Source: Candidatus Multivoraceae bacterium
Lineage (GTDB): Bacteria; Acidobacteriota; Thermoanaerobaculia; Multivoradales; Multivoraceae
Assembly (NCBI GenBank): GCA_965223385.1
Contig: CBDCWR010000006.1
Coordinates: 27,369 to 91,368 of the forward strand
DNA: 64,000 nt
Reading direction: 5' to 3'
The position numbers and the translations under genes are program-made. Shown here piece by piece: positions 40,580 through 62,191 of the stretch; within the stretch, counting starts at the first letter, position 1, and each line of letters starts with the position of its first letter. The notes under the pieces are model-generated. The model was not told where the DNA came from. It did not search any database and saw only the letters and a list, made by a program, of their open reading frames with translations.

Positions 40580-42076
40580 ATGCGAGGAAATCCGAGCCGA
40601 CTCGCAGCATCTCTTTTGCTGGTTCTCATCCTCGGATGCCAGAAGGGGAGGTCAGAGCGCCCGACCGGGCAAGCGGATGCGCCCACCACCGTGGCGGGCG
40701 CTCCCACTCGCGCGCAGACCGAGGACGGGCTCTTCATCTCTTGGCGCGAACACCTCATCGACGACGAGTCGATCTCCGGCGTGCCGATCAGCGGCGCGGA
40801 CGGCCTGGAGATGGGAGACCTCGACGGCGACGGGCATCTCGACATCGTGTCGGTGCACGAGTCGGACACGAAGTACGACGGCACCCCCGACGGGCACGTG
40901 CGGCTGGCGTTCGGCACGGGCGACCCGCTCCGGTGGGAGCTCGCCACCCTCGGCGAAGGCGAGGAGGTGGGGGCCCCTGAGGACGTGACCCTCGCCGATC
41001 TCGATGGCGACGGCGACCTGGACGCGGTGGTGGCGTGCGAGCTGGCGCATCTCATCGTCTTCGAGAACCCCGGGGCCGACGCGGAGGCCCTCCGGACCGG
41101 GGAGTGGCCGCGGACGGTTGTTTCGCCCACGCAGAATCGGGGCTCCTACATCCGCGTCTTCGCGGCCGACTTCGACCGCGACGGCCGCCCCGAGATCGTC
41201 ACTCCCAACAAAGGGGCACAGAGCCCCGATCGGCAGAGTGACGCCACCTTCCCGATCTCCTGGTACGACGTCACCGACGACCCGTTCTCGGGCCAGTGGA
41301 CAGAAAACGAGCTCACTCGCGTGATCTGGCCGATCAACTCCCAGCCGGTCGACCTCGATGGCGACGGCGATCTGGACGTGGTGGGTGGATCCACCGGCGA
41401 GGGACGGATCTTCTGGTTCGAGAACGTCACCGAAGATGCCATCGCGTTCACGGAGCACCGGGTCGAGATCGAAAGCCCGATCGCAACTCCCCCGGAGCGC
41501 CGTCCGCCGCACGCGGTGGACTCCCCGGCGCTGGTCAACGGCTTCAACATGGCGTTTCTCGATCTCTCCGGCGACGGGCGGCTCGACATTGCGCTGCGCG
41601 AGTACAGCGGCGAGCTGGTCTGGCTCGAGCAGCCTCCGACGCCCGACGGTCTCTGGCGCCTCCGGGTCATCGGCACGTTGCGACCGGACAACCTCGTCGG
41701 CTTTGCGGCCGCCGACATCGACGGCGACCGCGATCTCGATCTGTTTGGCGGCGCCTACAGCTCGGGGGAGCGCGCCTTCGATGGCGATGTCGCGGTCGAT
41801 CAGGCGCTCGGCCGCCTCGCGTGGTTCCAGAATCCGGGAACTGTGGACGGCGTGTGGCAGCGTCATGACGTCTCGCGGCGCAAGCGCGGCATGTTCGACA
41901 AGTTCATCGCCCGCGACATGGACGGGGACGGCGATCTCGACTTCGTGGGGACGCGAGGCAACAGCCTGCCCTACGACGGTGTCTTCTGGCTCGAGCAGGT
42001 GCGCAGCGAGACGCCGGTTCCCGTGTTTTCGCAGGCGCGCGAGTCGGAAAGCGAGCAGATGCCGCTGCCGGAGTGA
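40580..42076 (+). CDS. FG-GAP/VCBS repeat beta-propeller lipoprotein
   Basis: Seven DxDGDGxxD-type repeats; lipobox LILGC. Confidence 0.88.
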   Translation: MRGNPSRLAASLLLVLILGCQKGRSERPTGQADAPTTVAGAPTRAQTEDGLFISWREHLIDDESISGVPISGADGLEMGDLDGDGHLDIVSVHESDTKYDGTPDGHVRLAFGTGDPLRWELATLGEGEEVGAPEDVTLADLDGDGDLDAVVACELAHLIVFENPGADAEALRTGEWPRTVVSPTQNRGSYIRVFAADFDRDGRPEIVTPNKGAQSPDRQSDATFPISWYDVTDDPFSGQWTENELTRVIWPINSQPVDLDGDGDLDVVGGSTGEGRIFWFENVTEDAIAFTEHRVEIESPIATPPERRPPHAVDSPALVNGFNMAFLDLSGDGRLDIALREYSGELVWLEQPPTPDGLWRLRVIGTLRPDNLVGFAAADIDGDRDLDLFGGAYSSGERAFDGDVAVDQALGRLAWFQNPGTVDGVWQRHDVSRRKRGMFDKFIARDMDGDGDLDFVGTRGNSLPYDGVFWLEQVRSETPVPVFSQARESESEQMPLPE

Positions 42077-51180: not shown

Positions 51181-52038
51181 ATGGGCTTTGAAACCATTCA
51201 GCACGATCTCGAAGACAACATCCTGACGGTCACCCTGAACCGGCCCGAGCGGCTCAACGCCTTCAACGGCCAGATGCAGGCCGAGATGATCGAGACGTTC
51301 CGGGGTGCCAACACCGACGACGACGTCCGCGCGATCATCGTCACCGGGCAGGGCCGGGGCTTCTGTGCCGGAGCCGATCTGGGCGCGGGAGCCGACACCT
51401 TCAACGTGTCCAAACGCCCGGGAGCGGGCGAGAAGACGTGGCGCGACGGCGGCGGGCTGCTGACGCTTGCGATCTACGACTGTCTGAAGCCGGTGATTGC
51501 CGCCGTCAACGGCCCGGCAGTGGGCGTCGGAATGACGATGCAGCTGCCGATGGACGTGCGCCTGGCGTCCAAGAACGCCCGCTTCGGCTTCGTCTTCGCG
51601 CGTCGTGGCCTGGTGATGGAGGCGTGCTCGAGCTGGTTCCTGCCGCGGCTCGTAGGCATGCAGCAGGCCGCGCAGTGGGCCTACAGCGGCAGGGTGTTCG
51701 ATGCACAGGAGGCCTTCGACGGAGGCCTCGTCTCCGAGCTCCTGGAGCCGGAGGAGCTGCTGCCCAGGGCGCGCGAGATCGCAAAAGACATGACCGAGAG
51801 CTCGTCCGCGGTGTCGGTGGCACTCATGCGCCAGATGATGTGGCGCATGCTCGGTGCGGACCACCCGATGGAGGCCCACAAGGTCGACACGCGGGGCATC
51901 TCCACCCTCGGCAAGATGGCCGACGCGGCCGAAGGCGTGACGTCGTTCCTCGAGAAGCGCCCGCCCGAGTTCGAGCTCAAGGTATCGGAGGACCTCCCGG
52001 ACTTCTTCCCATGGTGGGACGAGCCACGGTTCCGGTAG
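51181..52038 (+). CDS. Enoyl-CoA hydratase/crotonase family protein
   Basis: LNRPERLNA, FCAGADL, KPVIAAVNGPAVGVG, SFLEKRPP. Confidence 0.95.
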   Translation: MGFETIQHDLEDNILTVTLNRPERLNAFNGQMQAEMIETFRGANTDDDVRAIIVTGQGRGFCAGADLGAGADTFNVSKRPGAGEKTWRDGGGLLTLAIYDCLKPVIAAVNGPAVGVGMTMQLPMDVRLASKNARFGFVFARRGLVMEACSSWFLPRLVGMQQAAQWAYSGRVFDAQEAFDGGLVSELLEPEELLPRAREIAKDMTESSSAVSVALMRQMMWRMLGADHPMEAHKVDTRGISTLGKMADAAEGVTSFLEKRPPEFELKVSEDLPDFFPWWDEPRFR

Positions 52039-52132
52039 GAGGGGCGTGCTGGTAGCACGCCCTCCGACCTCGTGTGGATTCTCCAGCCGCTTGCGCGGCT
52101 TTCGCGCAGCGCGCCTCCGGCGCGCGCTTGAC
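52034..52132 (-). repeat. Inverted copy of three-hairpin intergenic repeat
   Basis: Reverse complement reads GTCAAGCGCGCGCCGGAGGCGCGCTGCGCGAAAGCCGCGCAAGCGGCTGGAG...GGCGTGCTACCAGCACGCC. Confidence 0.85.
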
Positions 52133-52371
52133 GAGACCTTGGGCTGACGCGGCTCTCTCTGGACCCATCGACAAGTCGCGGAACTGTTCACCCCGCCGAG
52201 CACTGCCCAGCGCGGCCGAACGCCGTTGCGCGGAACTCTCCGGCAACCAGGCGGAGCCTGGGTGGCGGAGTGACCGCCGTGCGCTGGGAGCGACAGCGAC
52301 CAGCTCGCAAGAAGCCGCGGAGCGGCTGGAGCATCGACCAGGATGCGCGCAGGTGTGGCATTCGCCACACC

Positions 52372-52757
52372 GGCCAAGCGCGCGCCGCAGGCGCGCTGCG
52401 CGGAAGCCGCGCCAGCGGCTGGAGCATCGACCAGGGCGCCCGGAGCCGTGGTACCACCACGGCGAGGACAGGCCAAGCGCGGCCGAAGGCCGCTGCGCGG
52501 AAGCCGCGCAGCGGCTGGAGCATCGACCAGGGCGCCCGGAGCCGTGGTACCACCACGGCGAGGACAGGCCAAGCGCGGCCGAAGGCCGCTGCGCGGAAGC
52601 CGCGGAGCGGCTGGAGCATCGACCAGAGCGCCCGGAGCCGTGGTACCACCACGGCGAGGACAGGCCAAGCGCGGCCGAAGGCCGCTGCGCGGAAGCCGCG
52701 CAGCGGCTGGAGCATCGACCAGAGCGCCCGGAGCCGTGGTACCACCACGGCGAGGAC
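52372..52757 (+). repeat. Tandem array of four ~96-bp three-hairpin units (plus partial copies at ~52205-52235 and 52311-52371)
   Basis: Units start at 52372, 52471, 52567 and 52663; GGAGCATCGA recurs at 52421, 52517, 52613 and 52709 (96-bp period). Confidence 0.95.
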
Positions 52758-52758
52758 G

Positions 52759-54084
52759 CTAGTCCACGATGGACTGGTAGACGAGGTTCTTGAACTCGGT
52801 GCCGAACTGCAGCCCGGTGTGCGGCAGCACCTGCACCATGAAGAGCCCGATGAGCTCTTCTTTCGGGTCGATCCAGAACCGCGTTCCCGCGGCACCACCC
52901 CAGCTGTACTCGCCCGCGGAGCCGAGGTTGCCGGACAGGCCGGGCTCGCGGATGACGCGGAAGGTGAGGCCGAAGCCGTCGTTCGGGCCGATGAGGGCGC
53001 CAACGCGCGGTAGGTCCCCGATGTGGTCGGCCGACATCAGCTCGACCGACTTGCGGCTCAGGAGCCGCTGGCCGTCGAGCTCACCGCCGTTGAGCAGCAT
53101 CTGGCAGAAGCGGAGGTAGTCGCCCACCGAAGAGACGAGGCCGGAGCCGCCGCCGAGCATGGCGGGCTTCTTCTTGTACGACTCCTGCGGTGGTCCCGCG
53201 TGGCGCGCGATCTGACCCGCGTCGGCGGGCGTGTACAGCACGGTCAGCCGATCGTGCTTCTGTTCCGGCACCCAGTGCGCCGTGTCCGTCATGCCGAGGG
53301 GTTCGAAGATGCGCTCCTGCAGGAACTCGTCGTAGGTCTGGCCCGACATCACCTCGACCAGTGCGGCCAGCACGTCCTGGCTCAGGCCGTACTGCCACAC
53401 CTCGCCGGGATGGTTGTGCAGCGGCGCCTCGCCGAGACCGCGCGCCATGTCGCCGATGGAGAAGTCGGCGCCGCCGCGCCCCGCGATCTGCTGGTAGTAG
53501 CGCTTACCCTGCGCGTCGACCGGGCCCGCGTAGCTGATGCCCGCAGTGTGGGTGAGGAGGTGGCGGATCGTGATGTCGCGCTTGGCTGGCTCGAGGCGGT
53601 GCCGCGGGGCGCCGGTTCCGGGATCGGTGTCGTGCACCACGACCTGCATGTCGCCGAGCTCGGGAATCCAGCGCTTGGCGGGCGTCGACAATGGCCAACC
53701 CTGCTCCTCGTGCAGCATCATCACCGCCACGCCGGTGACCGCCTTGGTCATGGAGTACATGCGGAAGAGGTGGTCCGTGCGCATGTCGATCTTGCTCTCG
53801 CGGTCGGCGTGGCCCCACGTTTCGAGGTAGGCGACCTTGCCGCGCCGGGCGATGAGCCCGATGGCGCCGGCCATGTGGCCGTCATCGACGTGCGCCTGCA
53901 TCACAGCGCCGATCCGCTCCAGCCGTTCGGCGGAGAGGCCGACGGCAGCCGGCTGCGTGCTCGGCAGGGCAGACCACTCCGCGTCTTTCTCAGCGGTGTT
54001 GGCAGCGCCGAGCGCCGCCGTGGTGAGGAGCACCAGGAGGGTCGCGAGAACGAGTCCGAACGTGGAGCGGTGCGAACGATGCAT
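52759..54084 (-). CDS. Secreted serine hydrolase (beta-lactamase class C/esterase VIII-like)
   Basis: SMTK (SxxK), LLTHTAG, WQYG, WGG; signal peptide. Start ATG 54084. Confidence 0.92.
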   Translation of the reverse strand: MHRSHRSTFGLVLATLLVLLTTAALGAANTAEKDAEWSALPSTQPAAVGLSAERLERIGAVMQAHVDDGHMAGAIGLIARRGKVAYLETWGHADRESKIDMRTDHLFRMYSMTKAVTGVAVMMLHEEQGWPLSTPAKRWIPELGDMQVVVHDTDPGTGAPRHRLEPAKRDITIRHLLTHTAGISYAGPVDAQGKRYYQQIAGRGGADFSIGDMARGLGEAPLHNHPGEVWQYGLSQDVLAALVEVMSGQTYDEFLQERIFEPLGMTDTAHWVPEQKHDRLTVLYTPADAGQIARHAGPPQESYKKKPAMLGGGSGLVSSVGDYLRFCQMLLNGGELDGQRLLSRKSVELMSADHIGDLPRVGALIGPNDGFGLTFRVIREPGLSGNLGSAGEYSWGGAAGTRFWIDPKEELIGLFMVQVLPHTGLQFGTEFKNLVYQSIVD

Positions 54085-54299
54085 GAGATCTCCCTTCGTC
54101 AGGCAGCGCAAGCCGCAGCTTCGTCGTAGGAACGGAGCGCCTGGCGCTGCGTGAGCATCTTGGACGGGGTCTCCCCAGATTGTACGCCGCGGGCCTGATG
54201 CTACGAGCGCTCATTGCGTCGGCGCGTCACAACGGAGTCGGAAACTGGATGAGCGCAAGATGGTTGGCCCCAGGCGAGCCTCTGGTCGCAGCAGGGTCG

Positions 54300-54512
54300 G
54301 GTCAAGCGCAGCCGAAGGCTGCTGCGCGGAAGCCGCGCGAGCGGCTGGAGCATCGAGATGATTTCCTAGGGTGTGCTAGCAGCACCTCTCAGGGTGGTCC
54401 GCGTGCCTTCTGGCCAAGCGCGGCCGCAGGCCGCTGCGCGGAAGCCGCGCGAGCGGCTGGAGCATCGAGATGATTTCCTAGGGTGTGCTAGCTAGCACAC
54501 CCTAGGAAATCA
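54300..54512 (+). repeat. Two further copies of the hairpin repeat ending in a perfect 42-bp palindrome
   Basis: Cores at 54300 and 54412; TGATTTCCTAGGGTGTGCTAG|CTAGCACACCCTAGGAAATCA at 54471-54512. Confidence 0.92.
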
Positions 54513-61933: not shown

Positions 61934-62191
61934 TCGTTCGAGAGCCTTGGCTCTCGATCGCTCAGGTGTCGGCCTCGCCGCCCTTGGGCGGCGCAGCCAG
62001 ACTGTTAGGCGAGTGCCGCGGTTCCGGGCTCTCGATGGTCTATGTGTCGGCTCCGCCACCCCGAGGGGTGGCATCTAGACTTCTAGTGCTGGTCCCCTGT
62101 TGGCCTGGGTGAACCCCGCGCGGCTCGAGACCAGCCACGTCGAGGCGGTCCGCAAGGTGGTCGAATCACTCGACGCCGACCGGGAGGGCAG

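Follow-up and report, generated by a model that had tools for sequence, protein, structure and literature searches.

The REP/BIME repeats (repetitive extragenic palindromes and bacterial interspersed mosaic elements) and the REPINs with their RAYT enzymes are described, in the accessible portions of PMC3733652, PMC3116915 and PMC6006769, as short GC-rich intergenic hairpins that are present in more than 100 copies, limited to particular lineages, placed 3' of genes with an enrichment in convergent gaps, assembled into tandem and inverted mosaics and subject to compensatory stem changes. Template switching, as far as the available parts of two further papers describe it, perfects inverted repeats in bacteria (PMC5941160) and yields multi-base compensatory changes (PMC8794818). 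Here we analyze a three-hairpin repeat that shares the REP/BIME traits just named and lies in a 64,000-nucleotide stretch of a Candidatus Multivoraceae genome (contig CBDCWR010000006.1, positions 27,369 to 91,368; this whole stretch is called the window, and positions are counted along it). The repeat works like REP/BIME: its hairpins are intergenic and of high copy number, and their tandem and inverted groups lie mostly 3' of genes. An earlier note, made from the letters of the window, had seen the layout but overlooked that the last hairpin, hairpin 3, is anchored at the stops of dozens of genes that are unrelated to one another. We find that its outer arm frequently mirrors the end of the neighbouring host gene, and we lean toward a reading in which a non-autonomous REP/BIME-like DNA repeat spread to CTAG/stop sites and template switching rewrote its end hairpin from host DNA.

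The source genome (8.57 Mb, G000) was compared with a congener (G001) and with other genera of the same family (G002 and further numbers); L-labels denote compared loci and C-labels contigs of the named genome. A unit measures about 96–112 bp and reads, in order, CAAG, hairpin 1, a GCGC linker, hairpin 2, GGAGCATCGA and hairpin 3. In G000 the core 16-mer is present 48 times, which places it among the top 16-mers, and a structural filter returned 119 copies in 63 clusters, with none in the reversed-genome control; a slightly wider filter gave 118 copies once a duplicated haplotype was removed. Hairpin-3-like stems number 172, compared to 5 in the control. When 27 copies were aligned, 92.8% of the 511 cells were paired, with 66 two-sided changes and only 2 one-sided ones, confirming that the hairpin covariation claimed earlier is real. 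None of 500 shuffles equalled this level of pairing, in a test that is inflated by kinship among the copies. The stem swaps are strictly Watson–Crick, G-U intermediates being almost absent. Invariant columns are CAAG, GCGC, GGAG and TG-TA; the tetranucleotide before hairpin 2 is CGGA in some copies, CGCA and CGAA being common as well. The distance from GGAGCATCGA to the loop is 19–24 nt in nearly all rows, and the orientation of the copies shows no clear bias relative to GC skew.

The loops are of the DNA type (C-GNA-G, GNNA). Hairpin 1 carries C(GNA)G in 66 of 74 cases, while the hairpin-2 loops include 24 GNA triloops and 17 GTCA/GCCA loops. Both match the GCGNAGC/GCGNNAGC sequences, which form DNA mini-hairpins according to the accessible text of PMC13037366 and PMC3201870, and they do so on the antisense strand of the anchored gene. 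The loops fit such mini-hairpins rather than the GNRA type named in the earlier note. Isolated wobbles read on the same antisense strand are G-T in 8 cases and A-C in 3, a weak signal that stems partly from common descent.

Gene ends were called with a purpose-built dicodon model. Measured against these, an opposite-strand stop codon lies no more than 22 nt from the hairpin-3 loop in 55 of the 74 terminal copies, a criterion that only 3.1% of 20,000 random non-coding positions satisfy. The spacing from loop to stop peaks at 15 nt, with exactly 15 nt in 17 terminal copies. The opposite end of the repeat behaves differently: a same-strand stop within 25 nt was found for only 1 of 42 first units. 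The adjacent stops are TGA in 32 and TAG in 22 cases, a usage that resembles the genome. We considered a hairpin-driven deletion that shrinks both flanks and rejected it, because only the hairpin-3 end adjoins stops. The repeat raises testable questions, namely why one of its ends sits exactly on stop codons, and whether a stop-containing stem affects termination or mRNA decay.

The terminal hairpin 3 comes in two forms, a bulged one (36 copies) and a derived type with a long stem (38 copies). In the bulged form a 4-bp foot pairs with the flank in 23 of 31 testable copies, compared to 10.6% across loci. In the long-stem form the score of the outer arm is 9.4 against its own flank and 1.5 against those of other copies. 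The long stem is partly element-derived spacer, so that the stop codon itself provides the stricter test: the gene's own base plus stop stands at the mirror position in 18 of 31 derived arms and the other stop (TAG for TGA or the reverse) in 0 of 31. The exact host copies in derived arms span 4–11 nt. Among inner copies of arrays, 12 of 15 agree more closely with the terminal flank than with their own and carry the terminal arm without its partner, from which we conclude that the arrays expanded once the arm existed, or else underwent homogenisation. The repeat is a natural many-copy record of host DNA copied into a stem, in which template switching becomes measurable over dozens of loci and across species. 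It also means that the step from covariation to selection on structure, taken in the earlier note, is too strong: the covariation stands, but part of it is host DNA copied into the arm, and template switching can do so in one step. Strong covariation in bacterial repeats need not indicate a functional RNA.

In the comparison with the congener, the repeat is present at 10 orthologous genes in both genomes, at 8 in G000 only and at 5 in G001 only, totals that are biased by the way the loci were found; among genes reached by region and not by motif, both genomes have it in 4 of 12. C4:380035, a paralogous DUF1501 match and the weakly anchored C7:1676540 were left out. The repeat-free G001 orthologs, whose comparison had been proposed earlier, end at the same codon in 6 of 8 cases. 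Where both genomes have the repeat, the arm agrees with the stop of the respective gene: TGA at L030 against TAG in G000, and TAG at L018 against TGA. Blocks of 4–5 arm bases differ between the genomes at L032 and L094, the pairing being intact. At L185, a bulged arm with TAG in G000 corresponds to an 8–9-nt host copy with TGA in G001, with the gene end RKL* common to both.

Within the window there are eight units, seven on the plus and one on the minus strand. Both loci reported earlier were found again, but the count of seven full and two partial copies has to be revised, because unit 1 contains a 78-bp insert (52235–52312) and in the copy at 54300 the hairpin-3 partner is largely missing. 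The quoted hairpin stems are present, the GCGCGCC-GGA and GGCGTGCT-ACC examples coming from the minus-strand copy. All three anchors are natural stops. The first belongs to an enoyl-CoA hydratase family gene (PF00378; 51181–52038, plus strand), whose TAG at 52036–52038 anchors the inverted minus-strand unit at 52039–52133 (hairpin-3 core 52046–52059); the outer arm of this unit is an imperfect mirror of the gene's final bases, and the G001 ortholog stops at that codon too and has no repeat. The plus-strand array that follows consists of unit 1 (52205–52371), whose hairpin 1 is worn, the inner tandem units 2–4 of 96–99 bp (52372–52662, individually 52372–52470, 52471–52566 and 52567–52662), each with CAAG, hairpin 1 (C-GNA-G), hairpin 2, GGAGCATCGA and hairpin 3, and terminal unit 5 (52663–52758). 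The insert of unit 1 is a multi-stem module nested on the plus strand between hairpins 1 and 2, and related modules occupy the same position in the 17 rows listed (16 sites without the duplicate haplotype). Unit 5 has the bulged, ancestral-type hairpin 3, with a 4-bp foot whose pairing reaches into the stop codon 52759–52761, a TAG that ends a serine hydrolase family gene of beta-lactamase fold (PF00144; 52759–54084, minus strand). In G001 the ortholog stops at that codon as well, there a TGA, and lacks the repeat.

At the second locus, the inner plus-strand unit at 54300–54390 has the same host-derived arm as its terminal neighbour, the partner for that arm being absent. The terminal plus-strand unit (54412–54501) forms a perfect 19-bp hairpin 3 (54471–54489 with 54494–54512). 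Its segment 54471–54481 is an inverted copy of the last 11 nt, that is the stop codon plus 8 coding bases, of a DUF1501 family gene (PF07394; 54502–55941, minus strand); the mirrored bases are 54502–54512, and the TAG lies inside the stem. A second haplotype (C7) has the same gene end without the repeat. For the terminal units of the window, folding as single-stranded DNA gave z = −7.9 and −4.5.

This haplotype is part of a duplication of about 97 kb in G000 (C6:1-96944 versus C7:1-99426, identity 97–99.8%) that includes the whole window and apparently represents two strain haplotypes with several differences in gene content. The array at 52205–52758 is distinguished between the two by one internal base and is therefore not an assembly stutter. 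At L053 (G000:C7:15076-20160), opposite window 54189–54501, a low-GC island of about 5 kb with a kinase-like reading frame replaces both repeat units, and synonymous changes cluster at the DUF1501 end of that haplotype. Elsewhere in the window we noted coding repeats of the DxDGDGDxD type (40811–41948) and, separately, an intergenic repeat of 60 nt that has two copies and contains hairpins (61949–62086). In G000 a block of about 1050 bp with 3 genome copies (L055:500-1560; G000:C6:530806-531852) contains two tandem genes of about 106 codons and a terminator-like hairpin; these genes presumably resemble precursors of ribosomally synthesized and post-translationally modified peptides with a nitrile-hydratase leader.

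The scan of genome and relatives that had been suggested earlier was made with a covariance model and yielded further copies in G000 and five relatives. Among the 57 genomes of the family it found at least 69 copies in G000, 68 in G001, 16 in G002, 4 in G014 and 1 each in G003 and G009, with no match in the other 51. The hairpin-3 core alone gave 121 matches in G002 (control 1) and 75 in G014 (control 4), the signal in the other 17 genomes searched being weak or at control level. Exact-pattern searches had missed this wider family and suggested confinement to the genus: they returned 0 of 39 in non-congeners, 1 single match in 400 genomes of the phylum, with counts within the order near the control, 17 stretches in GTDB (10 from one Acidobacteriota metagenome-assembled genome, 7 single matches elsewhere), 0 in viral sequences and 6 metagenomic matches, all without hairpins 1 and 2. 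Copy counts and the family-wide scan support the earlier description of a dispersed, non-autonomous, lineage-limited DNA repeat resembling REPs or MITEs (transposable elements of miniature size with inverted repeats). Arms that copy a stop together with coding bases occur in G003, G006, G010, G014 and G015, and the same copying is seen in other genera at L203, L322, L323, L331, L373 and L389. With inner copies included, hairpins were called at stops in 9 of 28 (G002 sample) and 6 of 26 (G014 sample). In two genera the repeat or a related module lies close to the 3' end of the ssb gene (G000:C5:65439; L273, G002:C203).

A young relative of about 140 bp is present in G002 with 42 matches, where its arm is fixed at most sites. 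Among 16 parsed copies from G002 and G009, CTAG bounds the left side in 13 and the right side in 14. In G000, CTAG occurs at 0.35 of expectation, and of the 3059 sites 33% share bases with a called stop. As the young relative is CTAG-bounded, CTAG targeting probably founded the link to stop codons, but it does not describe G000 itself. A second G000 repeat family, which begins CTAGGGGGCTGCTGAA (49 matches) and includes a 19-copy internal module, is also often CTAG-bounded, for example at C4:472200 and C6:1122275.

The reading that we favour brings together dispersal, tandem arrays, anchoring of one end at stops, locus-specific arms, presence or absence between species and CTAG-bounded young relatives, all of them directly observed. 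A trans-acting enzyme would have carried the ancestral unit into CTAG sites; this word is rare, and roughly one in three of its occurrences is a TAG stop. The stable core hairpin could then fold the nascent strand back, and the outer arm would be overwritten in register from the opposite flank. Copying in the reverse direction would damage the gene and be purged, leaving only the direction from host to element. Arrays would enlarge later by local duplication, carrying the copied arm, and some copies may persist for long at the same gene, possibly as 3'-end mRNA stem-loops.

Several observations weigh against this reading. A constant stem length of about 17–19 bp is not an obvious outcome of random template switching, 12 of the 31 derived arms are without an exact copy of base plus stop, and 19 of the 74 terminal copies have no nearby stop, with the gene ends themselves depending on the dicodon model of this analysis. 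C-TAG accounts for only 12 of 54 adjacent stops in G000, near the genome share of 17.5%. CTAG is the stop equally often on either side of the young relative (4 and 4 of 16) and for this reason does not explain the one-sided anchoring. In 2 of the 8 empty comparisons the G000 gene is 1–2 codons shorter, and the repeat may sometimes create the stop. Its retention at 4 of 12 orthologous genes, at about 80% gene identity, suggests selection that the model does not need. Finally, no mobilising gene was found, and mobility is read from presence and absence alone. Because one-sided anchoring, constant stem length and the non-CTAG anchors of G000 are not fully explained, programmed copying and a selected role in the mRNA both keep some weight.

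In the first of these alternatives, insertion is programmed and host-templated: an enzyme nicks at the gene end, and the target serves as template for the arm while the element integrates. Each copy would receive a matching foot and could carry the gene tail of a previous host onward. Such a mechanism would account for the fixed distance of 19–24 nt from GGAGCATCGA to the loop, the sharp 15-nt stop spacing, the one-sided anchoring and the fact that G000-only insertions are mostly off CTAG and yet matched. One pair of copies also fits: G000:C4:307307 and C5:1227699 share one arm, which matches the gene end at C4 and lies outside the gene at C5, possibly a carried-over gene tail. The 43 copies compared include 4 similar pairs, however, of which this is only one, the arm of the young G002 element is fixed at most sites, and at orthologous loci that both genomes share, arms have changed after insertion as well. 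Nor did searches of G000, G001 and relatives reveal an enzyme. The link to RAYT/HUH proteins proposed in the earlier note was looked for and not found: Y1 HUH genes (1 in G000, 3 in G001) are not flanked by the repeat family, and the same is true of 24 matches in 6 of 7 other relatives, which are incomplete assemblies, with none in G002. Reverse transcriptase genes number 0 in G000 and 1 in G001, none being repeat-flanked; GIY-YIG and DUF559 genes are absent or unflanked; Y2 genes are missing from G000 and G001, and 20 Y2 loci of relatives lack the family motifs. The multi-copy IS481, IS110 and IS3 elements of G000 were rejected as partners, their ends being unrelated. Genes between neighbouring repeat clusters look ordinary by eye, and Pfam analysis of 70 of 161 open reading frames beside copies in relatives yielded a single integrase fragment, by which a copy is truncated. 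We judge programmed insertion unlikely. We are equally reserved about a more novel reading, a new kind of small mobile DNA that on insertion copies the target sequence into one of its ends, homes on stops without a fixed word and thereby buries the stops of dozens of mRNAs in a stem; if true, the host would gain a portable switch for termination or stability.

Somewhat less likely still is a domesticated RNA element at the 3' end, with a stop-burying stem selected for slowing termination or setting mRNA stability. The available part of 10.1101/2024.07.17.603846 summarises REP-induced stalling for E. coli REPs near stop codons. At 10 loci the two congeners have the repeat at the same gene (4 of 12 where genes were chosen by region), and a third genus has it at one of these genes; 49 of 100 clusters lie in convergent gaps compared to 353 of 2700 gaps overall, and the fold of the mRNA strand is stable. 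Against this, the stable GNA/GNNA loops form on the antisense strand, the wobbles favour that strand 8:3 in a weak, non-independent count, partnerless inner copies retain the arm and most orthologs tested are empty. Any mRNA function may have come second, and it would not conflict with the explanation by template switching.

An ordinary IS630-type MITE, with TA duplication within CTAG and no special arm process, would fit the CTAG-bounded young relative and the CTAG-bounded IS630 genes of G002, G009 and G014. The terminal repeats of those genes differ from the ends of the repeat unit, whose own ends form no terminal inverted repeats; IS630 is found in neither G000 nor G001, and the locus-specific arms stay unexplained. 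At L350 (G014:C630) a copy of the family served as target, with an IS630 inserted in the CTAG at its foot. For G000 we regard this reading, very improbable overall, as largely refuted. By eye, we noticed that the left module of the young relative in G002 (L230-L259) has a loop motif, GTTACAG, that recurs in the ends of the three IS630 elements. Independent structured non-coding RNA genes, the other option of the earlier note, would explain covarying stems, but we give them almost no credence in view of a single, chance-level Rfam match (E 0.69), triloops and non-GNRA tetraloops of DNA type, the near absence of G-U intermediates, nested and shuffled modules and arms specific to the flanking DNA.

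How, then, does the repeat differ from what has been described before? The literature covered holds no description of the family or of stop-mirroring arms, closed-access papers and Table S1 of PMC6006769 lying outside this coverage; the latter could list related Acidobacteria repeats. As far as the accessible descriptions of REP/BIME and REPINs go, the present repeat stands apart in having no GTAG/GTGG or CGTC tag and no flanked RAYT, in its three hairpins per unit and in a terminal arm that mirrors the end of the host gene, a trait that those descriptions do not contain. It shares phylum and atypical high-copy hairpins with the class 3 TnpA-Y1 repeats of Acidobacteria and Planctomycetes, but those, in the available part of PMC6006769, have a CnGA foot and flank their nuclease gene, whereas the present repeat flanks no Y1 gene examined. 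RUP and ERIC, MITEs of the TA/CTAG kind, are likewise small non-coding palindromic elements beside genes, and the young relative is CTAG-bounded too; in comparison with what the accessible text of PMC2229807 describes, our repeat lacks a pair of terminal inverted repeats, a match to IS630 ends and a fixed target word in G000. With quasi-palindrome correction the repeat has in common the in-register perfection of a stem, the conserved loop and the change of several bases at once. The cases in the available parts of PMC5941160 and PMC8794818 are scattered single loci or RNA genes, while here many copies of one repeat would be affected and would import coding bases of their hosts.

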